Assembly (NCBI GenBank): GCA_035535295.1
Contig: DATLQI010000038.1
Location: forward strand, 95,973-159,972
Origin: Solirubrobacterales bacterium
Lineage (GTDB): Bacteria > Actinomycetota > Thermoleophilia > Solirubrobacterales > 70-9
Reading direction: 5' to 3'
Length of the DNA: 64,000 bases
Position numbers and translations under genes: made by a program
Notes under the pieces: model-generated
Database searches by the model: none
Told to the model about the DNA's origin: nothing
Seen by the model: only the letters and a program-made list of their open reading frames with translations
Shown here: in pieces, positions 9,160-59,079 of the stretch
How positions within the stretch are numbered: position 1 is the stretch's first letter
Layout: the number at the start of each line of letters is the position of its first letter

Positions 9160-10293
9160 ATGGACTTCAATCTCGGCGACGAGCATCGCCTGATCCAGCG
9201 CACGGTTCGTGACTTCGCCACCCAGGAGGTGGCCCCCGTCGCGGAGGAGCTCGACCGCGAGAAGCGGTTCCCCTACGAGATCGTGCGCAAGCTCGCCGAT
9301 CTCAACCTGATGGGGATCCCCTTTCCGCAGGAGTACGGGGGCGGGGGCGGCGACTCGCTCGCCTACGCGCTTGCGGTCGAGGAGCTGACCCGGGTCGATT
9401 CATCGGTGGCGATCACCCTCTGCGCCCACACCTCGCTCGGGACCCAGCCGATCTACCTCTTTGGCTCCGAGGCCCAGAAAGAAGAGTGGCTGCCGCGGTT
9501 GACGGCTGGCGAGGTCCTCGGCGCCTTCGGCCTGACCGAGCCCGAGGCCGGCTCGGACGCCGGCAACGTCCGCACCAAGGCGCGGCTCGACGGCGGCGAA
9601 TGGGTGATCGACGGCGCCAAGCAGTTCATCACCAACGCCGGCACCGAGATCTCCGGCGTCGTCTGCATCACCGCCCGCACCGGCGAGGACGAGATCTCCA
9701 ACCTGATCGTCGCCAACGGCACCCCCGGCTACGAGCAGGGCGAGCCGTACCGGAAGATGGGCTGGAACGCCTCCGACACCCGCCCGCTCACCTTCACCGA
9801 CTGTCGGGTGCCGGAGGAGAACCTGCTCGGACCGCGCGGGATGGGCTTCCGCCAGTTCCTGCAGGTGCTCGACATCGGCCGCATCGGCGTCGCCGCGATG
9901 GGCGTCGGCCTCGCCCAGGGCGCCCTCGACGAGGCGCTCGCCTACGCCAAGGAGCGCCAGGCATTCGGCCAGTCGATCTCCCGCTTCCAGTCGATCCAGG
10001 CCAAGCTCGCCGATATGGCGACCGAGATCGAGGCGACCCGGCTGCTCGTCTACAAAGCCGCGCGGATGAAGGACCGGGGCGAAAACTTCTCCCTCACCGC
10101 CGCCCAGGCGAAGCTGAAGAGCGGCCGCCTCGCCGTCCGCTGTTGCGAGGAGGCGGTGCAGATCCACGGTGGCTACGGCTACATCGAGGAGTACCCGGTC
10201 TGCCGCTTCTACCGCGACGCCAAGATCCTCACGATCGGCGAGGGCACCGACGAGGTCCAGCAGATGGTGATCGCCCGCGCCCTCGGGGCGTAA
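9160..10293 (+). CDS. acyl-CoA dehydrogenase (isovaleryl-CoA dehydrogenase suggested by context)
   Basis: Full-length ACAD pattern (TEPEAGSD, QFITNA, GGYGYIEEYPVCRFYRDAKI-TIGEGT). ATG at 9160. Confidence 0.9.
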   Translation: MDFNLGDEHRLIQRTVRDFATQEVAPVAEELDREKRFPYEIVRKLADLNLMGIPFPQEYGGGGGDSLAYALAVEELTRVDSSVAITLCAHTSLGTQPIYLFGSEAQKEEWLPRLTAGEVLGAFGLTEPEAGSDAGNVRTKARLDGGEWVIDGAKQFITNAGTEISGVVCITARTGEDEISNLIVANGTPGYEQGEPYRKMGWNASDTRPLTFTDCRVPEENLLGPRGMGFRQFLQVLDIGRIGVAAMGVGLAQGALDEALAYAKERQAFGQSISRFQSIQAKLADMATEIEATRLLVYKAARMKDRGENFSLTAAQAKLKSGRLAVRCCEEAVQIHGGYGYIEEYPVCRFYRDAKILTIGEGTDEVQQMVIARALGA

Positions 10294-10308
10294 GGGAGGC
10301 CTGGAGCC

Positions 10309-11253
10309 GTGATCCCGAAAGCCGTCCGCATCCGCGAGGTCGGCCCGCGCGACGGCTTCCAGAACGAGCCGGAGACGATCGCCACCGCGGACAAGGTGCG
10401 GTTGGTCGAGATGCTCGCCCGGACCGGTTTGCGGCGGCTGGAGGTGACGAGCTTCGTCCGCGCCGACGTCGTCCCGCAGCTGGCCGACGGGCGCGAGGTG
10501 CTGGAACGGGCTCGAATCCCTGATGACGTCTCGGTCTCGGTCCTCGTCCCCAACATGCGCGGCCTCGAAGCGGCGCTGGAGGTGCGGGAGAAGATCGACG
10601 AGGTCAACGTCTTCCTCTCCGCCTCGGAGACCCACAACCGCCACAACGTCAACCGCTCGGTCGAGGAGTCGCTCTCGGGACTGGAACACGTGCTGGCGCG
10701 GGCGACCGAGGAGGCGCTGCGCTGCGAGGCCGTGATCAGCACCAGCTTCGGCTGTCCGTATGAGGGCTACGTCCCGTTCGAGCGGGTCTTCGAGATCGCC
10801 AAACGCCTCTCCGCCGCCGGCGCGGTCGAGATCGGCTTCGGCGACACCACCGGGATGGCGAACCCGGTCCAGGTCGGCGAGTTCTTCCGCCGCGCCCACG
10901 AGGAGATCGTCGGGGCCGAGCTGACCGCCCACTTCCACGACACCCGCGGCCAGGCGCTCGCCAACGTGCTGGCGGCGCTCGAGACCGGGGTCGACTCATT
11001 CGAGTCGAGCTTCGGCCAGCTCGGCGGCTGCCCGGTCCCGCCCGGCGCCACCGGCAACGTCGCCAGCGAGGACCTGGTCTCGATGCTGCACGAGATGGGG
11101 ATCGAGACCGGCGTCGACCTCGGCAAGCTGCTCGACGCGGCGCGCGCGGCTCAGGATGTCCTGGGGCGGCCGCTCGCCTCCCACACCCTCGTCGCCGGCC
11201 CGGTCGAGTGGCACGCCGAGCGCGACCCCTTCAAGGAGAACCCGCCGCGATGA
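10309..11253 (+). CDS. hydroxymethylglutaryl-CoA lyase
   Basis: HMGL-like pattern ([36 protein letters not shown]). Confidence 0.9.
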
Positions 11254-12791
11254 GCGTGACCAAGGGAACGGCCGAGGGATCCCGCGAGCAGCACCTGGAG
11301 CTGATCGCCGAGCTGAACGCGGAGCTGGAGCGGGTCCGCGGCGGCGGCGGCGAGAAGGCGGTCGAGCGCCACCGCGGCCGCGGCAAGATGACCGCCCGCG
11401 AGCGCGTCGCCGGCCTCTGCGACGAGGGCACCGAGTTCCTCGAGCTCTCGCCGCTGGCCGCGCACGGGATGTACGACGACGCGGCGCCGGGAGCCGGGAT
11501 CGTCACCGGGGTCGGCGTCGTCAACGGCCGCCGCTGCGTGATCGTCGCCAACGACGCCACCGTCAAAGGCGGCACCTACTACCCGGTGACGGTGAAGAAG
11601 CACCTGCGCGCCCAGGAGGTGGCGCTGCAGAACCGGCTCCCCTGCATCTACCTGGTCGACTCCGGCGGCGCCTTCCTGCCGCTGCAGGACGAGGTCTTCC
11701 CCGACCGCGAGCACTTCGGCCGCATCTTCTTCAACCAGGCGACGATGTCGGCGCGGGAGATCCCGCAACTGGCGGCGGTGATGGGCTCCTGCACGGCGGG
11801 CGGCGCCTACGTGCCGGCGATGAGCGAGGAGACCGTGATCGTCCGCCACCAGGGGACGATCTTCCTCGGCGGCCCGCCGCTGGTGAAGGCGGCGACCGGG
11901 GAGGAGGTGACGGCGGAGGAGCTCGGCGGCGGCGACGTCCACGCCCGCAAGTCCGGCGTCGCCGACCACCTCGCCGCCGACGACGCCGAGGCGCTGCGGA
12001 TCCTGCGCGAGATCGTCGCCACGCTGCCGCCCGCGCCGGCGCCGCCGTGGGCGCGGATCGAGCCGCGGCCACCGCTCGGGGAGCCGGACGAGATCCTCGA
12101 CGCCGTCCCGATCGGCTCCCGTGCCCCCTGGGACGTGCGCGAGGTCCTGCGCCGCGTGGTCGACGCCGGCGAGCTGCGCGAGTTCAAGGAGAAGTACGGC
12201 AAGACCCTTGTCTGCGCCTTCGCCCACGTCGACGGCCACCCGGTGGGGATCCTCGCCAACAACGGCATCCTCTTCTCCGAGAGCGCCCTCAAGGGCGCCC
12301 ACTTCGTCGAGCTCTGCGACAAGCGCCGGATCCCGCTTGTCTTCGTCCAGAACGTCAACGGCTTCATGGTCGGCTCCAAGTACGAGGCCGGCGGCATCGC
12401 CAAGGACGGCGCGAAGATGGTCGCCGCCGTCTCCACCGCCCGGGTGCCGAAGCTGACCGTGATCGTCGGCGGCTCCTTCGGCGCGGGCAACTACGGCATG
12501 TGCGGCCGCGCCTACTCGCCCCGCTTCCTCTTCATGTGGCCCAATGCCCGCATCTCCGTCATGGGCGGCGACATGGCAGCGGCCGTGATGAAGGAGGTCG
12601 GCCAGCCCGACACCGCCGCCGAGCTCAAAGAGCAGTACGAGCACCAGGGCCGCCCCTTCTATTCCACCGCCCGCCTCTGGGACGACGGCGTCATCGACCC
12701 CCGCGACACCCGCCGCGTCCTCGCCCAAGCCCTCGCCGCCTGCGCCAACGCGCCGCTTGAGGAGGCGATGGCGCCCGTGTACCGGATGTGA
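11250..12791 (+). CDS. methylcrotonoyl-CoA carboxylase carboxyltransferase (beta) subunit
   Basis: ATG at 11250 overlaps the upstream stop (ATGA). Carboxyltransferase domain pattern ([36 protein letters not shown]). Confidence 0.9.
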
Positions 12792-16772: not shown

Positions 16773-17090
16773 ATGGACGAGGTCTTCAAGGCGCTGGCCG
16801 ACCCCACCCGCCGTGAGCTGCTCGACCAGCTCTTTGCGCGGGACGGGCAGACGCTGAGCGCCCTCGAGGGGCGGTTGCCGATGTCCCGCTTCGGCGTGAT
16901 GAAGCACCTGAAGGTGCTGGAGGAGGCGGGGCTGGTGACGACCCGGAAGCGCGGCCGCGAGAAGCTGCACTTCCTCAACCCCGTCCCGATCCGGCTCATT
17001 CACGACCGCTGGATCGACAAGTACGCGGAGCCCTGGGCCTCGGCGCTCAGCGAGCTGAAGAAAGACATAGAGAGCGAGGAGAAGCGATGA
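16773..17090 (+). CDS. ArsR/SmtB-family transcriptional regulator
   Basis: ALADPTRRELL...MSRFGVMKHLKVLEEAGLV winged-helix pattern. Confidence 0.85.
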   Translation: MDEVFKALADPTRRELLDQLFARDGQTLSALEGRLPMSRFGVMKHLKVLEEAGLVTTRKRGREKLHFLNPVPIRLIHDRWIDKYAEPWASALSELKKDIESEEKR

Positions 17091-17578
17091 ACGACGAGCA
17101 GGCCTACACCGTGGTCGGCGGGCGCGGATCGATGACCGTGTTCGAGATCTACATCAAGACGACGCCGGAGCGCCTCTGGGAGGCGATCACCAGCGAGCAG
17201 ATGCGGGCGCGCTACAGCTTCGGGGTCGGAACCGTCTCTGACTGGACCCAGGGTTCCGAGTACAAGGCGTCGGTCCCGGGGGTGGTGGACATCGCCAGCG
17301 GCGAGAACCTCGAGGTCGGTCCGCCCCGGCGGCTGGTCCAGAGCTTCACCGCGCTCTGGAGCGAGGACGTGCAGAAGGAAGGCACCTCGCGCGTGACCTG
17401 GGAGATCGAGCCGGTCGGCAGCTCCTGCCGGCTGCGCGTCACCCACGACCAGCTCGGCAGCGACGCCAACAACGAACTCTACGGCGGCTGGCCGATGATC
17501 CTCTCCGGTCTGAAGACGTTGCTGGAGACCGGCGAGGACCTCGACACCCCGGGCTCGCTGCGCTACGCGGGCGCCTAA
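17087..17578 (+). CDS. SRPBCC / AHSA1-domain protein
   Basis: Typical partner of ArsR regulators. 4-nt overlap with the ArsR gene. Confidence 0.75.
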   Translation: MNDEQAYTVVGGRGSMTVFEIYIKTTPERLWEAITSEQMRARYSFGVGTVSDWTQGSEYKASVPGVVDIASGENLEVGPPRRLVQSFTALWSEDVQKEGTSRVTWEIEPVGSSCRLRVTHDQLGSDANNELYGGWPMILSGLKTLLETGEDLDTPGSLRYAGA

Positions 17579-17817
17579 AAGCGCTGGCGCCTGCCGCCGC
17601 CGTGAGCGGCGATCTCAGGCGCTGGCGGGTGCGGCTCCGGGGGATCGATGGGGGGCTGTGGCTCAGGTGGCCCCGGATCCGGCCGCGGTGGCGCCGGGTC
17701 CGGGGAGGGGGGAGCTGGGGGACCCGGCTCCGGCGTTGGCGAGGGCGGCTGCGGGTCTGGTTGGGGCGGACCGGGGATCGGGGTCTCCAGGACGGGGGTG
17801 TCGAGAAAGGTCTCCAT
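17575..17817 (-). CDS. small proline-rich protein (80 aa, about nine XPPX motifs)
   Basis: ATG preceded by GGAGGAGGG, which overlaps a GGGTAG-N9-ATG arrangement. GC3-rich codons. No family recognised. Confidence 0.45.
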   Translation of the reverse strand: METFLDTPVLETPIPGPPQPDPQPPSPTPEPGPPAPPSPDPAPPRPDPGPPEPQPPIDPPEPHPPAPEIAAHGGGRRQRF

Positions 17818-17838
17818 GCCCTCCTCCTACCCGCCATC

Positions 17839-17866
17839 GGTTTTTCTTGACCGGGGGCCGGGGTAG
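17839..17866 (+). promoter_or_regulatory. SigB/SigF-type promoter GGTTT-N17-GGGTAG (baeRF operon)
   Basis: Strict motif match. About 30 nt of leader with AGGAGGAGG before the ATG at 17899. Confidence 0.65.
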
Positions 17867-17898
17867 CCGAAGCGGACCCGACTCAGGAGGAGGCGTCG

Positions 17899-18993
17899 AT
17901 GACCCAACCGAGCTTGGAGGCCGCAAAGGAGTTGAGCGAATGGCGCCCGCCGCTGGGCGTCCTTTCCGTTTTCCTCGGATTCGACCCGGCCGATCGCGGC
18001 GGCGCTTGGCGAACCGCCTTGCGCAACGACCTCGACTCGATCCTCGAGACCCAGCAGGAAGCCGAGCACGACCGCCGCGTGGCGCTGCGGGCGACGGCGA
18101 AACGGCTGACCGAACGCTTCGAAGACGGGGAGTTGCGACCGCCTCCTCGGGGCGAAGTCGGCTTCGTCGAAGTAGCCGAGAAGGAGGGGACCGAGCACTG
18201 GTTCGGGACCGCGGTGGCGCCGGTCGCCGACGCCTGCGTCGAGTTCGGCGTCGACCCGGTGGTGGCGCCGTTGTTGGACCTCTGCGGCCGCGGCGGCGCC
18301 CGGGGAGTAGCCCTGCTCTCCTCTGAGCGGGTGCGGCTGTTGCGCTGCGCCGAAGGCTCGCTGGAGGATCTCGAGGACTGGGAGCTGAGCGTGACCATGC
18401 TCGACTGGCGTGAGCGCAAATCCCAGAGCACCAACAACCCGGCCCGCGCCCAGGGGGTCAGCGCCTCCGGCCACGACCAGTTCGACGAACGGCTCGACCA
18501 CAACCGCCAGCGCTTTTTGGGCGAGTGCGGTGGCCTGGTCGTCCGCCGCCTCGAGGCGGACGGGATGGGCGAGCTGATCGTCTTTGGTCCCAGCAAGGAC
18601 GTGGAGAGCTTCAAATCCGGTTTTGGCTCGCCGCAGGCGACGCTGACCGTCGGCGGCGACCAAGATCTGATCTCGGTCCCCACGGGTAAGGTGGCCGAGG
18701 TCGTCTCCGAGGTTGTCAGCCGCCTCGACGAGGAGCGAGATCGCGCTGTCGTCGAGCGAGCCCTGGGCGAAGCGAAGGGGGGCAGTCGCGGCGCTGCCGG
18801 CCTGCAGGAGGTGAAAGAGGCGCTGGTCGAAGGCCGCGTCGACCACCTCGTCTTCGACGGCGGGATCGGCGAGGAGGGCGAGTCGCTGATCCGGGCGGCG
18901 ATGTCCAGCGGCGCTCGGATCACGGTGATCCGCGACGAGCTCGCGGCCCCGCTGGCCGAGGCCGATGGGGTCGCCGCGCTCCTGCGCTACTGA
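17899..18993 (+). CDS. eRF1-like bacterial release-factor-family protein (baeRF / Vms1-like)
   Basis: N-terminal PLGVLSVFLGFDP, central SGHDQFDERLDHNRQRFL (resembles the eRF1 GGQ-RF-HN segment) and C-terminal GVAALLRY, as I recall for baeRF families. Confidence 0.65.
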   Translation: MTQPSLEAAKELSEWRPPLGVLSVFLGFDPADRGGAWRTALRNDLDSILETQQEAEHDRRVALRATAKRLTERFEDGELRPPPRGEVGFVEVAEKEGTEHWFGTAVAPVADACVEFGVDPVVAPLLDLCGRGGARGVALLSSERVRLLRCAEGSLEDLEDWELSVTMLDWRERKSQSTNNPARAQGVSASGHDQFDERLDHNRQRFLGECGGLVVRRLEADGMGELIVFGPSKDVESFKSGFGSPQATLTVGGDQDLISVPTGKVAEVVSEVVSRLDEERDRAVVERALGEAKGGSRGAAGLQEVKEALVEGRVDHLVFDGGIGEEGESLIRAAMSSGARITVIRDELAAPLAEADGVAALLRY

Positions 18994-19017
18994 GTTCCCT
19001 TTATGTGACCGCAGTCC

Positions 19018-19044
19018 GGTTCGCAGCTCCTCCAGCGGGGGTAC
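19018..19044 (+). promoter_or_regulatory. SigB/SigF-type promoter, near match GGTTC-N16-GGGTAC (CsbD-like gene)
   Basis: Lies in the 93-nt gap after the baeRF stop. It argues against the track start at 19045. Confidence 0.45.
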
Positions 19045-19086
19045 GTGGAAAGGAATGAAGAGGACGAACCGAGAAGGAGAGCGAGC

Positions 19087-19587
19087 TTGAGCGAGCAAGA
19101 GAAGGTCGCCGGAGGCCCCTTGGGCAAGGTAGTTGGAAAAGCAAAGCAGATGGCCGGCGCGGTTCTCGACCGCGACGACCTGCACCGCGAGGGGAAGCTG
19201 CAGGAGGTCCAGGCCGACGCGGAGGCGGAAGCCGCAGCGAAGGCGGCGGAGGCCGAGCGCAAGGAAGAGGAAGCCGAGATCGAGGCCGAGCGGGCGGAGA
19301 CCGAGGCCGAGCGCCACGAGGTCGAACTCGAGGCTGCCGAGATCGAGGCCGAGGAGGAGGCCGAGCGTCGGCGGGCCGAAGAGGAGCGGGAAGCAGCCAA
19401 CCGCGCCCAGGCCGAGAAAGCCGCCGCCGAGCGCCAACGGCTGGCCGGTGAAGAGCGCGCCGCTGCCAAACGCCAACAGGCCGCGGCAGAGAAGGGCGCG
19501 GCGAAGGGCGAGGCAGCCGAGCTGCAGCGCGAAGCCGACCGGGCCGAAGAGGCTGCTGCCGCGATCGATCCCAAGGAGGAGAACTAG
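19087..19587 (+). CDS. CsbD-like stress protein fused to Glu/Ala/Arg-rich coiled-coil (hydrophilin-like)
   Basis: TTG at 19087 after GAAGGAGAG. GKVVGKAKQMAGAVLDRDDLHREGK fits the CsbD pattern. The remainder is low-complexity EAER repeats. Confidence 0.6.
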   Translation: MSEQEKVAGGPLGKVVGKAKQMAGAVLDRDDLHREGKLQEVQADAEAEAAAKAAEAERKEEEAEIEAERAETEAERHEVELEAAEIEAEEEAERRRAEEEREAANRAQAEKAAAERQRLAGEERAAAKRQQAAAEKGAAKGEAAELQREADRAEEAAAAIDPKEEN

Positions 19588-19589
19588 AG

Positions 19590-20207
19590 ATGGCGATGCC
19601 GACTGTTCCGAGGACGATCTTCAACTCGTCGCTGAAGCTGGCCCGGGCCCCGTTCGACGTCGCGCTGGGCGCGCTCGGTGGCTCCGATTCCGGGGCCAAA
19701 CACCTGATCGACCGGGCCGAAGCGGGCGCCCGCAGCGCCACCGGCGTCCTCTTCGCCGACCCGGAGCTGCGCGAAGAAGGCCGAGCGGCGCTGCTGGCGA
19801 CGAAAGAGCGCGAGCGGGCGACCGAGCTGCGCGAGAAAGCCGAGGTGCGGGAAGGCGAGGCCGAGGAGCGCCAGGCCCGGGCCGCCGAAGCGGCCGGGAA
19901 AGCGGCCGCGGAGGCGCGGCGCAACGCCGAGCAGGAGAAGCGCAAAGCGGAGAAGCGGCGGCGCGAACGCGAGGCACGGGCGAAGAAAGCCGAGGCGAAG
20001 AAGAAGGAGAAAACCGCCAAAGCCGCGAGCAAAGCCAAACGCGCCAACGCCAAAGCCGAGAAGACCGCGCAGCTGGAGAAGCTCGAGGCCAAGGAAGAGA
20101 GCATCGAGGCCAAGGAGGAGGCGGCGGCGACCGAGCGCGAGGCGAAGCGACTGCAGGAGGCCGCGGCCGCGGCCAAGGAGGCGCGGAAGAACGGTGACGG
20201 CAGCTGA
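19590..20207 (+). CDS. charged coiled-coil / hydrophilin-like protein
   Basis: RBS GGAGGAG. Lys/Glu/Ala-rich C-terminal two-thirds. Confidence 0.55.
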   Translation: MAMPTVPRTIFNSSLKLARAPFDVALGALGGSDSGAKHLIDRAEAGARSATGVLFADPELREEGRAALLATKERERATELREKAEVREGEAEERQARAAEAAGKAAAEARRNAEQEKRKAEKRRREREARAKKAEAKKKEKTAKAASKAKRANAKAEKTAQLEKLEAKEESIEAKEEAAATEREAKRLQEAAAAAKEARKNGDGS

Positions 20208-20706
20208 CGGGACCTTCTTCCACAGCTGTCCGGCCGAAGCCGACCCCGCCTCGCTGCTGGACCCCGACCAGCAAATAACCGAGCCCTGGGGTGAGCCCGA
20301 ACACGGCCCCTGCGACAAGTGCGGAGGCCGCGGCACGACCGAGTACGAGTGCTTCTCCTGCATGGAGGCGGGCTCGGACCCCGGCTGCCTCGTCTGCCAG
20401 GGGCGGGTTCGCTTCGAGCAGACCTGCCCCACCTGCCAGGGAACTGGCGAGATCCACCGCACCCGGCGCAAGGGCATCGCCGTCTTCCCCCGCCGCGAGG
20501 GGCTCTATCGCTACCTCGCCTGGAAAAGCGATTCCGAGCCCGAGGGCAAGGTCGTGGTCGAGGTGGCGGCGAGACTGAGCGATGACTGTGACCTCGACGC
20601 CGACCACGGGGCACTGCTGGTCTTCCCGGAGCGGGTGGTCGCGGTCGAGCCGCTCGACCCTGAGGTGGTCGAGGCGATCAGCGAACGCGTCGGCGAAGAG
20701 AACTGA
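20194..20706 (+). CDS. DnaJ-type zinc-finger-like protein (four CxxC motifs)
   Basis: CDKCGGRG, CFSC, CLVCQG and CPTCQGTG motifs. The start overlaps the upstream gene end. Confidence 0.55.
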   Translation: MTAADGTFFHSCPAEADPASLLDPDQQITEPWGEPEHGPCDKCGGRGTTEYECFSCMEAGSDPGCLVCQGRVRFEQTCPTCQGTGEIHRTRRKGIAVFPRREGLYRYLAWKSDSEPEGKVVVEVAARLSDDCDLDADHGALLVFPERVVAVEPLDPEVVEAISERVGEEN

Positions 20707-22425: not shown

Positions 22426-23462
22426 GCGCTCCGCTCGAGCTCAGCTACGTGGTGCCGGTGCGCTGGCGGGGCGGCGAGCAGCGGGAGGATCTGGCGGCCT
22501 ACCTGGCCGAGATCGCGCCTCATTGCGCCGAGGTGATCGTCGTCGACGGCTCCCCAGCCGAGGTTTTCGCCGCCAACGCCCAGGCGTGGGGCGGGCTCGT
22601 CACCCACGTGCCGCCGCTGGAGGACGAGCGCTGGCTGATGGGGAAAGTCTCCGGGGTGCGGACCGGCGTCCGCCTCGCCTCGCACGAGCGGGTCGTGATC
22701 GCCGACGACGACGTCCGCTACGAACTCGAGGCGCTGCGCCGGACGGCCGCCCTGCTCGACGCCCACGACCTGGTGCGGCCGCAGAACTACTTCAGCTCGC
22801 TGCCCTGGCACGCCCGCTGGGATACTGCCCGCACCCTGCTCAACCGCTGCCTCGGCCGCGACTACCCGGGGACGTTGGCGGTGCGGCGCTCGCGCCTGCT
22901 GGCGATGGGCCTCTACGACGGCGACGTCCTCTTCGAGAACCTGGAGCTGATCCGCACCGTCCGCGCCCACGGCGGCAGCGACGTCGCCCCGCTCGACCTC
23001 TACGTCGCCAGGGTGCCGCCCTCGTCGGAGCACTTCTGGGGCCAGCGTACCCGCCAGGCCTACGACGACTTCGCCCTGCCGCTGCGGATGGCGCTCTGGC
23101 TCGCGGTCGTTCCGCTGCTGGCGCTGGACTGGCGCCGGAGACATGCCGACGGGACGAAAGTACCCCTATATGGAGGGAAATCGTCCCATCGGCCTCGTAG
23201 TGGGCTGATGGCGGCTGCTCTCTCGGTTGCGATGGCGGAGGTGGGACGCCGGCGCGCTGGCGGCGCCGCCTACTTCCCGGCCTCCTCTTCCCTCTTGGCG
23301 CCGGTCTGGGTCCTCGAGCGCGGGGTCTGCGCCTGGCTCGCGGTCCTCCAGCGCCTGCGCTTCGGCGGCGTCCGCTACGGCGACTCGGTCATCCCCGTCG
23401 CCGCCCACTCCGAGCGACAGATCCGCCGCCGGCTCGCCAGGCCGACGCCGGTCGGGAGCTAG
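22422..23462 (+). CDS. family 2 glycosyltransferase with C-terminal membrane segment; carries an in-frame 49-bp palindromic repeat
   Basis: GTG at 22422 overlaps the upstream stop (GTGA). SYVVPV...VIVVDGS...ADDD pattern. Confidence 0.75.
   Translation: MSAPLELSYVVPVRWRGGEQREDLAAYLAEIAPHCAEVIVVDGSPAEVFAANAQAWGGLVTHVPPLEDERWLMGKVSGVRTGVRLASHERVVIADDDVRYELEALRRTAALLDAHDLVRPQNYFSSLPWHARWDTARTLLNRCLGRDYPGTLAVRRSRLLAMGLYDGDVLFENLELIRTVRAHGGSDVAPLDLYVARVPPSSEHFWGQRTRQAYDDFALPLRMALWLAVVPLLALDWRRRHADGTKVPLYGGKSSHRPRSGLMAAALSVAMAEVGRRRAGGAAYFPASSSLLAPVWVLERGVCAWLAVLQRLRFGGVRYGDSVIPVAAHSERQIRRRLARPTPVGS
23145..23193 (+). repeat. 49-bp palindromic repeat, copy 1 (inside the GT2 coding sequence)
   Basis: 47/49 identical to 63622..63670. 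12-bp arms GCCGACGGGACG / CGTCCCATCGGC (one mismatch). 25-nt AT-richer loop GAAAGTACCCCTATATGGAGGGAAAT. Confidence 0.85.
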
Positions 23463-23827
23463 GCGGCGGGCTGGATCGCCTGGACGTCCGCGAGCGAGGC
23501 GTAGGGGAGCCTCTCCTCGAGCCCGGTCAGGCTGAGCACGCGGCGCACTCCCGGCGTTTCGCTGGGGATGAACTGAATCCGGCGCGCGTCCGGGCGCCCG
23601 AGCGCCGTGATCAGCAGGGCGATTCCGGTCGAGTCGAGGAACTCCAGCTTGCTGAGGTCGATCAGAACCGGCCGCTTCGAGTTGAGCGCCTCTTCCAGCT
23701 TCAGCTCGGCGGTGCCGGCGTTCGAGAGGTCGAGCTCTCCCTGCAGGCAGCAGCGAATGCGTTCGCCTTCTTCAAGCTGCTCGACGACCAGTAACCCGTC
23801 CTGGGTTCGAGAATCGATGATCGGCAC
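23459..23827 (-). CDS. STAS-domain anti-sigma-factor antagonist
   Basis: LDLSKLEFLDSTGIALL motif. GTG start after GGAGG. Confidence 0.85.
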   Translation of the reverse strand: MPIIDSRTQDGLLVVEQLEEGERIRCCLQGELDLSNAGTAELKLEEALNSKRPVLIDLSKLEFLDSTGIALLITALGRPDARRIQFIPSETPGVRRVLSLTGLEERLPYASLADVQAIQPAA

Positions 23828-24374: not shown

Positions 24375-25307
24375 ATGAAACACGCCGGTTTCCAACACGA
24401 AGCCCTCATCTACGACGGCCCCTCGGAGTACCTGGCCGGGACCGTCCCCTTCCTCCAGGCTGGAATCGAGTCCGGTCAGCGCATTCTGGTGGCTGTCGGA
24501 CCGGAGCAGACCGAGTGGCTGCGGCGGGAGCTGGGCGCCGACGCCAGGAGGGTCAGCTTCACCGACATGCGCGAAGTCGGACGCAACCCGGCGACGATCA
24601 TCCCCCTCTGGCGCGACTTCGTCGAGGCGGCCGGGGGCTGCCCGGTGCGCGGAATCGGCGAACCGGTCTGGGCCTCGCGCAGCGACGCGGCGCTGGAGGA
24701 GTGCCGGCGCCACGAGTCCCTGCTCAACTTCGCCTTCGACGGCGGACCCGCCTGGGACCTGCTCTGCCCCTACGACGCCGCCTCGATCGGCGACGACATC
24801 ATGGAGAAGGTGGCCCACTCGCACCCCTGCCTGCAGCGCGAAGGCCGCCACGAGCCCAGCGCCACCTACGAGCCCGACCCCGACTGCTTTGCCGGCGAGC
24901 TGTCGGTGCCGGCCGCGAGGCCGGAGGTCTTCGAGTTCTCCGTCACCGATCTCGGCGACGTTCGAAGCCGGGTCACCGCCGCGGCCGAGGAAGTCGGGAT
25001 GGACCCCGGCGGAGTGGCGGACCTGGTCGTCGCCGCGAGCGAGCTGGCCGCCAACAGCGTCATGCACGGCGGCGGCAGCGGCACCCTGCGCCTCTGGCGC
25101 GAGGACGGGCGGGTCCTGGTCGAGGTCGAGGACCGCGGCCGGATCGAGGACCCCCTCGTCGGCCGCCTCCGTCCCAGCATCTCGCAGGAGGGCGGCCGCG
25201 GCCTCTGGCTCGCCAACAAGCTCTGCGACCTGGTTCAGATCCGCTCCGGCGAGGCGGGCACGACGGTGCGCCTGCACGCGCTGGCGCCGGAGATGGCCTA
25301 CGTCTAG
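24375..25307 (+). CDS. MEDS domain + HATPase anti-sigma-factor-like regulatory protein (RsbA-like)
   Basis: N-terminal HEALIYDG...FLQAGIESGQRILV (MEDS). C-terminal ELAANSVMHGGG...GRGLWLANKLCD (HATPase_c-like). Confidence 0.75.
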   Translation: MKHAGFQHEALIYDGPSEYLAGTVPFLQAGIESGQRILVAVGPEQTEWLRRELGADARRVSFTDMREVGRNPATIIPLWRDFVEAAGGCPVRGIGEPVWASRSDAALEECRRHESLLNFAFDGGPAWDLLCPYDAASIGDDIMEKVAHSHPCLQREGRHEPSATYEPDPDCFAGELSVPAARPEVFEFSVTDLGDVRSRVTAAAEEVGMDPGGVADLVVAASELAANSVMHGGGSGTLRLWREDGRVLVEVEDRGRIEDPLVGRLRPSISQEGGRGLWLANKLCDLVQIRSGEAGTTVRLHALAPEMAYV

Positions 25308-25349: not shown

Positions 25350-26300
25350 ATGCCAGACAACGATCCCCAGACCCAGCTCGTCAAGTACCTGACCGACGTC
25401 CACTCGATCGAGGAACAGGCGCGAGTGCAGATGGAACGCGCCCCGAAGCTCGTCGAGGGCGCCTTCGCCGAGGCCTTCCAGCGCCACCTCGGTGAGACCG
25501 AATCCCAGGAGCAGCGCGTGCGCGAGCGCCTCGAGGCGCACGACGCCTCGCCCTCGAAGATCAAGGACGTCGCCGGCGCGGCCGGCGGCTTCGGGATGGT
25601 CCTCTTCGCCCGCTCCCAGCCCGACACGCCGGGCAAGCTGGCGATGCACGCCTTCTCCTACGAGCACATGGAGGTCGCCGCCTACGAGCTGCTGGGGATC
25701 GCCGCCCGCGAAGCCGGCGACGAGGAGACCGCTGCGATGGCGGCGACGATCGCCGACGAGGAGCGCGAGATGGCCGGCCGGATCGCCGCCAGCTGGGACG
25801 AAGCGGTCGAGCAGGCGCTGGCCCGGGTCGAACCCGACGACCTCGGCGACACGCTGAACACCTACCTCGCCGACGTCCACGCGCTCGAGGGTCAGTCGAA
25901 GAAGCTGCTGGAGAAAAGCCGCGAGCTCGACGTTCCGGAAGCGCTCCGCTCCGCCCTCGACCACCACCTGCGGGAGACCGAAGGCCACCTGGAGAAAATC
26001 GAGCGCCGGCTCGACGACCGCGGCGCCACCCCCTCGGCGATCAAGGACGCGATGCTCCGCCTCGGCGCCCTCAACTGGGGCGCCTTCTTCGCCGCCCAGC
26101 CCGACACCCCCGCCAAGCTCGCTGGCTTCGCCTACGCGGTCGAGAACCTCGAGGTTGCCGCCTACGAGCTGCTTTTCCGCGTCGCCCGCCGCGCCGGCGA
26201 CGGGGAGACCGTCACCCTCGCCGAATCGATCCTCGGCGAGGAGCAGGCGGCGGCGAAATCGGTCGCCGACCAATGGCCGGTCTCGATGTCGGTTGCCTGA
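25350..26300 (+). CDS. tandem DUF892 (YciE/YciF ferritin-like) domain protein
   Basis: Two repeats of the LVKYL-DVHSIE / LNTYLADVHALE ... H-ETE-Q/H ... EVAAYELL pattern. Confidence 0.8.
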   Translation: MPDNDPQTQLVKYLTDVHSIEEQARVQMERAPKLVEGAFAEAFQRHLGETESQEQRVRERLEAHDASPSKIKDVAGAAGGFGMVLFARSQPDTPGKLAMHAFSYEHMEVAAYELLGIAAREAGDEETAAMAATIADEEREMAGRIAASWDEAVEQALARVEPDDLGDTLNTYLADVHALEGQSKKLLEKSRELDVPEALRSALDHHLRETEGHLEKIERRLDDRGATPSAIKDAMLRLGALNWGAFFAAQPDTPAKLAGFAYAVENLEVAAYELLFRVARRAGDGETVTLAESILGEEQAAAKSVADQWPVSMSVA

Positions 26301-56731: not shown

Positions 56732-56757
56732 CTACCCCAGGGCGGGGGCGCTTAAGC
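56732..56757 (-). promoter_or_regulatory. SigB/SigF-type promoter, near match GCTTA(A)-N15-GGGTAG, 10 nt to ATG 56721
   Basis: The -35 overlaps the stop codon of the upstream STAS gene. Confidence 0.4.
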
Positions 56758-57114
56758 CGTCAGCGCGGCGAGGGCATCGTCCCGGGTCAGGTGGACCGGG
56801 ATCGAAAGCTCCAGGCCGGTGATCTCGAGCACGCGGCGGACCTGGTCGTTCCCGCTGCAGATGACCAGGGCGCGGCCGTTTTCGCCGCCGTCGAGGCGCT
56901 GCCAGGCGCGGACGATGAGGGCGATGCCGGTGGAGTCGATGAACTCGCAGCCAGAGAGGTCGATCAGCACCGAGCCCTCGTCGCTGGCCAGTACCTCGTC
57001 CAGTGGACCCTCCAATTCAGGAGCGGTGCTGAGGTCGAGCTCGCCACGGACCGCGACGGTCCGGACGCCGTGCTCGAGATCTCCCACTTTTACCTCGAAC
57101 GGGACTGGATTCAC
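56752..57114 (-). CDS. STAS-domain anti-sigma-factor antagonist (RsbV-like)
   Basis: CEFIDSTGIALIV motif. GTG start. Confidence 0.85.
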   Translation of the reverse strand: MNPVPFEVKVGDLEHGVRTVAVRGELDLSTAPELEGPLDEVLASDEGSVLIDLSGCEFIDSTGIALIVRAWQRLDGGENGRALVICSGNDQVRRVLEITGLELSIPVHLTRDDALAALTA

Positions 57115-57153: not shown

Positions 57154-57180
57154 CGTTTTGCGGTCCACCGGCAGGGGTAA
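57154..57180 (+). promoter_or_regulatory. SigB/SigF-type promoter CGTTT-N16-GGGTAA
   Basis: Strict GTTT/GGGTA match, about 118 nt upstream of the anti-sigma kinase-like gene. Confidence 0.55.
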
Positions 57181-57297
57181 GCAGGCTTTGTAGAGAGGCG
57201 GCAAAGTATGCTCGCGCCTCTGGAATACGAGCCTCGACGTTCCTGGGGGCAGGCTGGAACTTTGAATACCTCAACCAATGACCGATCGGGGCTCCAA

Positions 57298-58098
57298 ATG
57301 TCCCTTCCCGCGCGGGCTGAGAACGTGGCGGTGGTCCGCCACGCCCTCGCCGGCCTGGCGGAACGCTTGGGAATGGATGAGGCGTCTCTCGCGGACCTGA
57401 AGACGGTCGTCACCGAGGCCTGCATGAACGTTGTCGTCCACGCCTACGCCGGCAGCGAGCCGGGGCCGCTGGAGGTCGAGGCCGAGAGCGATCTCGAGGG
57501 GCTCACGGTCGTGATCCGCGACCACGGCACCGGGATCAGGCCTCGCCCCGACGTTGAGCGCCCGAGCCTGCGGATCGGTCTGACTCTGATCGCCGCCCTC
57601 TCCAGCAGCTTCGAGATCAAAGGCGGGGCGGAAAAAGGCACCGAGATCCGCATGCACCTGCCGCTGCAGGCGCGCGAGAACGGCGCCGTCACCGGCTCCA
57701 CCTTCGCGGTGATGGCTGACGAGGAGACCCGGATCCGGGTCGGCCCGCCGGAGATCGTCGGCCCGGTCCTCAGCCGCGCCCTCTCCGCCCTCGCCGCCCG
57801 CCAGGACATCAGCGTCGACCGCCTCTCGGACACGATGCTGCTCAGCGACGCGATCTCCGCCCGGGCGCCCCAAGGCTTCACCGACGGCCACGTCTCCCTC
57901 AGCATCGCTGAGCTGCCGAAGGGGATCGAGCTCAAGGTCGGCCCGATGACCCACGGCGGCGCCGAGCGCCTCCGCGCCAGCTTCGAGCTTCCCGAGGTCG
58001 GCGGCTCCCTGGAGAAGCTGACCGACGAGCTGCGGGTCGAGGAGGGCGACGAAGGCGAGTACCTCGTCGTCGCCATCTCCTCGTTCTCGAAGAACTAA
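57298..58098 (+). CDS. anti-sigma-factor serine kinase-like protein (RsbW/SpoIIAB-type HATPase) with C-terminal extension
   Basis: ATG at 57298. VVTEACMNVVVHAY...DHGTGI pattern. Confidence 0.75.
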   Translation: MSLPARAENVAVVRHALAGLAERLGMDEASLADLKTVVTEACMNVVVHAYAGSEPGPLEVEAESDLEGLTVVIRDHGTGIRPRPDVERPSLRIGLTLIAALSSSFEIKGGAEKGTEIRMHLPLQARENGAVTGSTFAVMADEETRIRVGPPEIVGPVLSRALSALAARQDISVDRLSDTMLLSDAISARAPQGFTDGHVSLSIAELPKGIELKVGPMTHGGAERLRASFELPEVGGSLEKLTDELRVEEGDEGEYLVVAISSFSKN

Positions 58099-58257: not shown

Positions 58258-59079
58258 TTACTCGGTCTCAGTGGTCGCGGCGCCGCTTTGCTCGGCGACC
58301 TCGGCGCGGATGCGCTCCAGGGTGCGGCGGAGGATGCGGGAGACGTGCATCTGGGAGTGGCCGATCCGCTCGGCGATCTGCGACTGGGTGAGATCCTCGA
58401 CGAAGCGGAGCTGGAGGACGAGGCGCTCGCGCTCGTCGAGGTGGGGGAGGGCTCCCTCGAGGGCGAGTTTGTCCTCGACCAGCTCGTAGCCGGTGTCCTC
58501 GTCTCCGACCCACTCCGAGGCCGGCGATTCTTCCGCGTCCTCGCCGCCGACGGGGCGGTCGAGTGAGAGCGGTCGCCGGTTGTGGTTGGCCTCGAGCACC
58601 TCGAGCACGTCGGTAGGGTCGACCTCGAGCCGCTCGGCGATCTCGGTGACCGAAGGGGAGCGCTGCAGCTGCACGGTCAGCTCGGAGATCGCTTTCTCGA
58701 CTTCGGCCATGCGGTCGTGGAGGCCGCGGGGGACGCGGACGGTCCAGACCCGGTCGCGGAAGTGGCGCTTCAGCTCACCGAGGATCGTCGGCGAGGCGAA
58801 GGCAGTGAAGGGAGCGCCGCGATCGGGGTCGAAACGGTCGATCGCGTTGACGAGGCCGAGGCTCGCCACCTGCAGGAGGTCGTCGAAGGACTCGCTGGCG
58901 CCGCGGTAACGCAGGGCCAGGTTTTTCGCGAAGGGCAGATAGCGGCGGACCAGCTCCTCGCGGATCGCGGGATCGCGGTCTTTGACGAAGCGCGCCCAGA
59001 GCACGCGCTCGCTTGCCAGGCCCTCACCGGGACCCGGGCTCGACTGGTCTGCGCTTTTCGGCGTCTCTTCCCTGTTCAC
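58258..59079 (-). CDS. SigB/SigF/SigG-family (group 3) RNA polymerase sigma factor
   Basis: Region 2 (FDDLLQVASLGLVNAIDRFDP), region 3, and region 4 (LTQSQIAERIGHSQMHVSRIL). Confidence 0.9.
   Translation of the reverse strand: MNREETPKSADQSSPGPGEGLASERVLWARFVKDRDPAIREELVRRYLPFAKNLALRYRGASESFDDLLQVASLGLVNAIDRFDPDRGAPFTAFASPTILGELKRHFRDRVWTVRVPRGLHDRMAEVEKAISELTVQLQRSPSVTEIAERLEVDPTDVLEVLEANHNRRPLSLDRPVGGEDAEESPASEWVGDEDTGYELVEDKLALEGALPHLDERERLVLQLRFVEDLTQSQIAERIGHSQMHVSRILRRTLERIRAEVAEQSGAATTETE

Follow-up and report, generated by a model that had tools for sequence, protein, structure and literature searches.

This article concerns a stretch of 64,000 nucleotides (the window, about 70% G+C) from contig DATLQI010000038.1 of a Solirubrobacterales bacterium, and in particular a gene, here called A, that lies at 17899-18993 of the plus strand and encodes a protein of 364 amino acids. 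Judged by homology, A is an aeRF1-fold protein of three domains (N, M, and C), baeRF family 10-like and a relative of Balon. Ribosome hibernation is the best-supported function that can be predicted for it, since its nearest homologue of solved structure is the Balon of Mycobacterium smegmatis (MSMEG_1130). I think it probable that A is a Balon-type hibernation factor under stress regulation and that the genes beyond it on the same strand, B (19087-19587), C (19590-20207), and D (20194-20706), form a separate, co-regulated unit, not a set of dedicated partners. An earlier reading of this DNA (the original prediction) had recognized A as eRF1-like and had joined it to B, C, and D in a module for ribosome rescue or hibernation and for protein protection. 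The four plus-strand reading frames and the peptides it quoted from A are present as it described them, and hibernation has gained from the likeness to Balon, but the dedicated four-gene module is not supported: B has a promoter of its own, conservation of the genes is nested, and A stands alone in loci where it is 54-64% identical.

Balon was published in 2024 as a hibernation factor whose occupancy of the A site does not depend on mRNA. Both NIKS and GGQ are missing from it, and it touches EF-Tu by means of a beta-hairpin; binding to the A site and a place in stress-response operons are reported for Balon and for its homologues in mycobacteria (PMC10901736, cited here and below from part of its text). 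A role in translational shutdown was predicted for baeRF proteins by Burroughs & Aravind (PMC6514570, likewise cited in part). The view that this biology is undescribed is thus outdated as far as A is concerned. The cited parts of the two papers do not mention the specific combination with a CsbD-like, a charged, or a zinc-finger protein.

A search of 1.84 billion representative sequences gave 527 matches to A, and 44 diverse ones served to build a family profile. The closest relatives, of A as of each gene examined, are in metagenome-assembled genomes of Solirubrobacterales/Thermoleophilia. Against Pfam baeRF_family10, A scores 46.7 bits (gathering cutoff 27.1); it also exceeds the gathering thresholds of baeRF family5 (42.8 bits) and family3 (36.2 bits), so its placement in a subfamily is loose. 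MSMEG_1130, its sequence rebuilt from a printed alignment, scores 124.5 bits against the Pfam baeRF_family10 model, a strong membership, which makes family 10 the one to which the Balon of mycobacteria belongs. A matches the NCBIfam model for the MSMEG_1130 family ribosome hibernation factor with E=4.7e-34, and it lies under the equivalog cutoffs of the Rv2629 model (19.6 bits vs 320) and the AOC03_06830 model (25.9 bits vs 330). Among PDB sequences, A by itself finds Balon MSMEG_1130 (8v9j_z) over its full length (phmmer, E=4e-14). The family profile finds the same protein, again over its full length, with E=7e-67 and goes on to reach Pelota (E=1.7e-13), aRF1 (3agk; E=2.8e-12, full length), and the Rv2629 Balon (E=7e-9). 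The baeRF thresholds passed and the full-length match to aRF1 bear out the original call of an eRF1-like protein. PDB sequence searches, taken up to an E value of 1, gave no match to the Balon of Psychrobacter urativorans.

Then there is the predicted structure. An AlphaFold (AF2) model of A, made from a shallow alignment (73-91% identity), reaches pLDDT values of 75-89 in the middle and C-terminal domains. Foldseek gives 41 significant matches to it, every one in the aeRF1 superfamily and the first of them Msmeg1130 Balon (E=2e-15); the P. urativorans Balon is matched with E=3e-10. A structural comparison of the 364-aa protein was the check that the original prediction had asked for, and it comes out in favor of the fold. 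A carries SVFLGFDP at residues 23-30, SGHDQFDERLDHNRQRF at residues 190-206, and GVAALLRY at its C-terminus. It is full length in all 120 cluster representatives listed, and the family has many invariant positions, amongst them the Arg-rich helix and the C-terminal GVAALLRY.

What A shares with the M. smegmatis Balon (PDB 8v9j/8v9l) is homology over the full length, the three-domain aeRF1 architecture, the absence of NIKS and GGQ, an Arg-rich helix that follows the loop of the middle domain, a C-terminus that reads GVAA(L/V)LR(Y/W), and expression linked to stress. The two differ in that Foldseek aligns them with an identity of only about 22-24%, that the middle-domain loop of A is about 14 residues longer, with a conserved WRERK...SGHDQ, and that the C domain of A has no counterpart to the beta-hairpin insert of about 27 residues that touches EF-Tu. 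Regulation can also be compared, A lying behind a SigB/F-type promoter and MSMEG_1130 and Rv2629 being reported as induced by hypoxia (PMC10901736). With the P. urativorans Balon (PDB 8rd8/8rdv/8rdw), A has in common the fold and, by prediction, the mRNA-independent A-site mode of hibernation, but not the EF-Tu hairpin. Its N/M/C organization is also that of archaeal and eukaryotic aeRF1 and of Pelota/Dom34, from which it differs in lacking NIKS, GGQ, and any insert of the zinc-ribbon or mini-domain kind, in being bacterial, and in being predicted to be non-catalytic and regulated by a stress sigma factor. No RaiA/HPF gene was seen beside A among the flanking genes from 15.6 to 22.4 kb, which were scanned with Pfam/NCBIfam, the genes of the window being partly annotated.

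The C domain deserves a closer look. The segment between L317 and A334 measures 16-17 residues in all 121 sequences at least 70% identical to A, against 44-47 residues for the equivalent segment of MSMEG_1130-like proteins, which contains a two-strand insert, xGxRxxDGxL. That insert is the EF-Tu-binding hairpin of Balon and the '2-beta-strand insert' of Burroughs & Aravind (PMC6514570, in the part cited); the authors of the Balon study call the hairpin highly conserved (PMC10901736). In the model of A, strand 314-320 leads straight into helix 325-337. From the short segment and this strand-helix junction it follows that the clade of A is a hairpin-less variant, and the loss suggests that its members probably bind the ribosome without contact with EF-Tu. 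Hibernation factors have been reported to undergo frequent truncation or shrinkage and to evolve fast (preprint 10.1101/2025.11.04.686544).

The middle domain bears on the question of catalysis. A has no NIKS, the NIK-containing loop of aRF1 aligning with LETQQEAEH, and no GGQ, nor indeed any GG dipeptide. The original prediction lined up by eye a loop of A that ends in GHDQ with the GGQ segment of eRF1. In a HMMER alignment to aRF1, the helix QFDERLDHNRQRF that follows the loop does fall on the aRF1 helix, as guessed, but GGQ falls on K174-S175-Q176, and GHDQ is the end of an insertion of about 14 residues, directly before the Arg-rich helix. Many relatives have P or R in place of Q176 itself. 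In Balon an HP motif of the N-domain contacts A1492 and A1913. Ahead of the middle domain, the sole HP of MSMEG_1130 (in FIHPLVE, a possible match for that motif) aligns with VAPLLD of A, in which P124 is nearly invariant and the His is not kept.

The Gln of GHDQ, Q194, had been offered as the catalytic residue, an idea worth testing because Burroughs & Aravind singled out the Gln of family 10. Conservation was counted in 218 full-length homologues, binned by identity to A. Q194 is present in all 120 that are at least 70% identical, in 9 of 11 at 45-70%, in 25 of 31 at 35-45% (L or R otherwise), and in only 8 of 56 at 20-35%, where Arg is commonest. Over the range of 35-70%, L, R, or E takes its place in 8 of the 42 relatives. 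G191, D193, R198, R203, and F206 are better kept, and G191 and D193 hardly vary among relatives that are at least 35% identical. By this pattern the Gln is not convincing as a catalytic residue. The middle domain of Balon bears a lasso loop and a bL27 trap. The loop of A (171-193, with low pLDDT in the model) is conserved and fixed at 23 residues; the sequence from W170-RERK to SGHDQ194 is basic and leads into the Arg-rich helix. A conserved, basic loop of fixed length would fit contact with rRNA better than it would fit catalysis.

There remains the matter of how A is regulated. Upstream of it is a SigB/SigF-type promoter, with a -35 box of GGTTT (17839-17843), a spacer of 17 nt, and a -10 box of GGGTAG (17861-17866) that ends 32 nt before the ATG; the ribosome binding site, AGGAGGAGG (17885-17893), follows on the same plus strand. 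Among 80 related loci, gathered with an alignment of A's closer relatives and all from Solirubrobacterales/Thermoleophilia, a relaxed form of the motif lies 27-52 nt 5' of A in 77, compared with a background of 2.2% of random windows, or 0.46% when the position is constrained. The original prediction called it strict, which is slightly generous, the -10 box ending in G.

The same motif recurs through the window. GTTT-N14-18-GGGTA occurs 12 times (at 17840, 24261, 28793, 32396, 32673, 37571, 43755, 47928, 50998, 54338, 54373, and 57155), where 0.23 copies are expected, and the relaxed motif 14 times, where shuffled sequences give about 2.3, the additional sites being 19018 and 30325. Most copies are directly 5' of called open reading frames (ORFs); several are farther off or have no clear start nearby. 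Among the genes linked to them are those for Dps/ferritin, DJ-1/PfpI, and DUF892, which are typical of stress responses, those for an RsbW-like kinase and a STAS antagonist, and also small ORFs and genes for a P450, a sulfotransferase, and a member of the uracil-DNA glycosylase family. The window also encodes a sigma factor of the SigB/SigF/SigG family (58258-59079, minus strand; Pfam Sigma70 r2/r3/r4), which scores 263 bits on NCBIfam TIGR02980 (cutoff 234) and is a candidate regulator of the GTTT...GGGTA promoters. Beside it, Pfam/NCBIfam models identify a partner-switching pair. On the minus strand is the gene for a STAS anti-sigma antagonist (56752-57114), and on the plus strand that for an anti-sigma kinase of the RsbW-like kind (57208-58098), which is itself preceded by a copy of the motif at 57155-57180. 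A second partner-switching module consists of a STAS protein (23459-23827) and a protein with MEDS and HATPase_c_2 domains (24375-25307), after which comes a DUF892/ferritin-like gene (25350-26300). With 12-14 such promoters, a sigma factor of the SigB/F/G family, and two modules for partner switching, the window may therefore be regarded as a general-stress island.

Are A and the three genes beyond it one unit within this island or two? The original prediction had all four genes following one another with small gaps or overlaps. That is so for B and C, which are separated by 2 nt, and for C and D, which overlap by 14 nt, but not for A and B. The start first listed for B, a GTG (19045), comes immediately after a -10 box. 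The positions of the promoter and of the ribosome binding site (AAGGAG, 19074-19079), together with an N-terminus, 'SEQE', that is common to every locus, place the start at the TTG at 19087 instead, and the gap between A and B is therefore 93 nt, with a promoter inside it. This promoter, of the SigB/SigF type (-35 GGTTCG, 19018-19023; -10 GGGTAC, 19039-19044; plus strand), was picked up by the relaxed scan 42 nt before the TTG, and one of the same class stands in the A-B spacer of 44 of 45 loci. On its 5' side is a TGTGAC (19004-19009, plus strand). The element, TGTGA[C/T/G], stands 8-9 nt 5' of B's -35 box in 44 of the 45 loci and at none of the 80 A promoters, and the window has a single copy; it may be the site of a further regulator that sets B-C-D apart from A. 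The conserved promoter and the additional element indicate that B-C(-D) is a separate transcription unit. Some loci have GC-rich hairpins 3' of A. In one, L044, a transposase-like gene of 404 aa (about 9261-10475, minus strand) lies between A and the B-C unit, and B-C keep their own promoter on its 3' side.

To follow the distribution of the genes, every protein encoded in the flanks was compared with the 80 loci by tblastn. B and C are found downstream of A in about 45 of the roughly 50 loci in which A is at least 68% identical, and they appear after A only where its identity is at least about 64-68%. D is present in 18 of the roughly 50 close loci and is missing from two (L003 and L051) at 87% identity. 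Two loci at 72-74% identity (L026 and L032) have A without B, C, or D, and none of the three was found near A by tblastn in the 30 loci at 54-64% identity, where A keeps its promoter and is followed by unrelated, often convergent genes. A reverse count, begun from D in 54 metagenome loci, has C upstream in 46 of 47, B in 38 of 39, and A in 31 of 32. Conservation is nested, A reaching wider than B-C and B-C wider than D. Flanking genes for Nod19-like, ArsR, AHSA1, MpsC, CDGSH, and haem-oxygenase-like proteins are as syntenic as B-C. Since unrelated flanks are equally syntenic, the linkage of A with B-C does not rise above the background synteny of a shallow clade, and the co-occurrence of the four genes that had been put forward as a check shows, over the 80 loci, none beyond that background.

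Several observations weigh against the view that A is a stress-regulated factor of the Balon type, set apart from B-C(-D). A falls well below the equivalog cutoff of the NCBIfam model that it matches best in this family of hibernation factors, that of MSMEG_1130 (118 bits vs 480). The AF2 model has an overall pLDDT of 65, and its N-domain is unreliable. Binding of A to the ribosome is putative, by analogy with its homologues, and with no EF-Tu-binding hairpin the mechanism may differ from Balon's. The SG[H/R]DQ loop is kept in 120 of 120 close relatives (at least 70% identical), and Burroughs & Aravind describe in family 10 a well-conserved Gln and possible peptidyl hydrolase activity (PMC6514570, in the part cited). 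No terminator-like hairpin was found in this window between A and B's promoter, so some read-through, with co-transcription of A and B-C-D, is possible. And the assignment of the promoters to the sigma factor goes by similarity to a consensus, not by mapped transcription starts.

Some of these points could be taken to mean that A, B, C, and D make up one stress-induced operon, an integrated module of rescue or hibernation and protein protection in which B, C, and D are A's dedicated partners. All four genes lie close together on one strand, there is no obvious terminator after A, one class of promoter serves both units, A-B-C are kept together in about 45 of 50 close loci, and D is essentially found only downstream of A-B-C. 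I consider this unlikely nonetheless. A single operon of four genes does not go with a conserved internal promoter and a cis-element missing at A, with hairpins after A in some loci and a transposase-like gene that splits one of them, or with B-C and D that vary: A does without all three in L026, L032, and every one of the 30 loci at or below 64% identity, and D is missing even at 87%. The equal synteny of unrelated flanks and the confinement of C and D to a shallow clade argue the same way. It might also be held that A is an active release or rescue factor, the Gln of SGHDQ hydrolyzing peptidyl-tRNA on ribosomes stalled under stress. The constancy of the loop in sequence and in length and the near invariance of G191 and D193 would suit an active site; the Gln could be the analog of that in GGQ, or in the GGxSQ of VLRF-1 families; the remark on family 10 by Burroughs & Aravind speaks for it; and several close homologues are listed by NCBI as 'VLRF1 family aeRF1-type release factor'. 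Yet of the 42 relatives at 35-70% identity 8 have lost Q194, and only 8 of 56 at 20-35% keep it, its neighbors being better kept, there is no GG dipeptide, the residues aligned with GGQ are themselves variable, and the family 10 member whose structure is solved, MSMEG_1130, is a non-catalytic A-site hibernation factor (PMC10901736). An enzymatic A thus seems improbable.

It is hard to believe, and I regard it as very improbable, that A is a decaying or repurposed paralogue of Balon that no longer acts on the ribosome, its hairpin lost through relaxed selection. The insert is missing from all 121 members of the clade, and truncation and fast evolution are reported for hibernation factors (10.1101/2025.11.04.686544), but a protein that is full length in the 120 representatives listed, with many invariant positions and with a promoter kept in 77 of 80 loci, points to a gene that functions, is regulated, and is held under strong purifying selection. 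A last view, unlikely to my mind, is that the A of Solirubrobacterales is a mechanistically distinct variant of Balon that, in losing the EF-Tu hairpin, has gained a longer and rigidly conserved WRERK...SGHDQ loop at the tip toward the peptidyl-transferase center; it could act without EF-Tu, or even keep some chemistry at that center, and would be deployed with co-regulated, lineage-specific small proteins. If so, the proline-rich peptide described below, the acidic and basic pair of B and C, and the zinc-finger protein D may act on ribosomes or on aggregating proteins.

I return to A as a Balon-type hibernation factor, and to what it would then do, as pictured from the structures of MSMEG_1130 and Balon. 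A would be a protein in the shape of aeRF1 that has lost the motifs for stop codons (NIKS) and peptide release (GGQ). Under stress it would sit, without catalysis, in the A site of ribosomes that are idle or have stalled, its N-domain at the decoding center and its loop W170-RERK...SGHDQ194 at the peptidyl-transferase center, and the outcome would be that translation is blocked and ribosomes are preserved. Sequence and conservation give A a promoter to itself, one of the SigB/SigF class, in a window that encodes a matching sigma factor with anti-sigma and antagonist partners. B-C(-D), with a promoter of the same class and TGTGAC, are young, lineage-restricted general-stress proteins, present beside A because this stretch of DNA is an island of the stress regulon. 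What joins A to these neighbors looks like shared regulation, not dedicated partnership.

CsbD and MBP-1 are small general-stress proteins, SigB-dependent in Bacillus. B (166 aa, pI 4.6, 46% charged residues) was taken in the original prediction to be CsbD-like, and its N-terminus does bear a resemblance: about 65 residues align with positions 12-76 of the 78 in the MBP-1 model and with the core of the Pfam CsbD domain, and the gene, like those for CsbD and MBP-1, is behind a SigB/F-type promoter. But the scores fall under both curated cutoffs, 23.8 bits for CsbD (cutoff 40; residues 1-61, and only when the N-terminus is scanned alone) and 37.8-38.8 bits for NCBIfam MBP-1 (cutoff 80), and the likeness would be best called a resemblance, not curated membership. 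B also differs from typical CsbD proteins in its acidic, Ala/Glu-rich tail of about 95 residues, presumably helical, and from CsbD and MBP-1 in being paired with a gene for a basic protein. That gene is C, whose product (205 aa, pI 9.7, 43% charged) has no match in Pfam or NCBIfam; its N-terminal region has only 13 relatives, and those named by organism are all from Solirubrobacterales. C begins 2 nt after the stop codon of B, which suggests translational coupling, and this junction together with the complementary charges suggests that B and C are produced as a pair. A hydrophilin must have more than 6% Gly along with high hydrophilicity. The original prediction spoke of hydrophilin-like proteins beside A, and B and C are very hydrophilic (GRAVY -1.13 and -1.03, respectively), but each has 5.4% Gly and so falls outside the definition.

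D, a zinc-finger protein of 170 aa that begins within the end of C, belongs to a family of about 225 clusters and has no Pfam domain. Four CxxC pairs lie in a stretch of 42 residues, and the eight Cys are conserved in the family, seven of them invariant and C68 present in at least 90%. The original likening of this region to the DnaJ zinc finger holds as far as the four pairs go, the first and fourth fitting CxxCxGxG and the others not, but the score against Pfam DnaJ_CXXCXGXG is 17.8 bits, short of the cutoff of 32.7. Unlike DnaJ, D contains neither a J-domain nor a G/F region, the C-terminal domains of DnaJ are likewise missing, and its zinc finger sits inside an alpha/beta domain with no PDB counterpart. 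The AF2 model of this alpha/beta protein with an inserted zinc finger has a pLDDT of 82 and a pTM of 0.80; Foldseek with it finds no significant match in the PDB, the best being the zinc finger of DnaJA3 (E=0.039). By its distribution, D would be a lineage-specific accessory gene.

Divergent from A is a small gene (17575-17817, minus strand) for a protein of 80 aa, 41% Pro, with a pI of 4.4 and no Pfam match. It is conserved in 27 of the 79 loci with enough upstream sequence, all of them among the roughly 50 close relatives, and it is present only where the gap between AHSA1 and A is at least about 230 nt. In 28 sequences, the copy in the window included, diversity at the three codon positions is 0.15/0.13/0.45, and the consensus is M[EK]x[FR]LDTPxPGPPQPDPxPPSPTPEPGPP...PAPEIA, with in-frame indels and lengths of 55-80 aa. 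The possibility that this ORF merely mirrors a Gly-rich ORF on the plus strand was ruled out by the third-position bias in the minus frame and by the conserved start and end. A box, GGGTA[G/A/C], stands 9-12 nt before the ATG (GGGTAG, about 10 nt, in the window), and its nearness suggests that a promoter of this class gives rise to an almost leaderless transcript. The idea that the proline-rich peptide, or else B, C, or D, is the actinobacterial tunnel-occlusion factor RTOF was also considered and rejected, there being no FRRKSG-like motif in the six-frame translation of the window.

On the 5' side of A is a pair of genes for an ArsR-family regulator and an AHSA1/SRPBCC protein (16773-17578). 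In most loci at 54-64% identity the pair is within 2-7 kb of A, a linkage steadier than that of B, C, and D. A conserved stretch, 'AATTTGATGCAGTTCG', occurs just 5' of A's -35 box, about 60-90 nt before the ATG, in L009, L011, L019-L021, L023, L025, L043, and L046, mostly loci where A is not directly beside ArsR-AHSA1. On the other side, the space from C/D to MpsC is in relatives a variable stress island (L001, L004, L016, L025, and L048; about 1.7-4.7 kb past the stop codon of A), with genes for Mn-catalase-like and DUF2071-like proteins, an SPW-repeat membrane protein, and small acidic proteins. L016 has there (about 11665-11874) a protein of 69 aa with CxxCxGxG pairs of its own.

No new kind of system has come out of this analysis, the function of the family having been described already in 2024. 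What is new is, in a modest way, an apparent variant of Balon without the hairpin and with a distinctive conserved loop; clear evidence, from sequence, that would place A in a SigB/F-type regulon of Thermoleophilia; and three lineage-specific, small, co-regulated genes, namely C, D, and the divergent proline-rich ORF. The mechanistic diversity of Balon is still poorly mapped. The clade of A offers a natural test case: it keeps the A-site scaffold and has lost the EF-Tu hairpin, and with it one can ask whether contact with EF-Tu is needed. The promoter motif, for its part, is a cheap handle at the level of sequence on the general-stress (SigB/F-like) regulon of Thermoleophilia, abundant but barely studied actinobacteria of the soil, and it puts ribosome hibernation inside that regulon.

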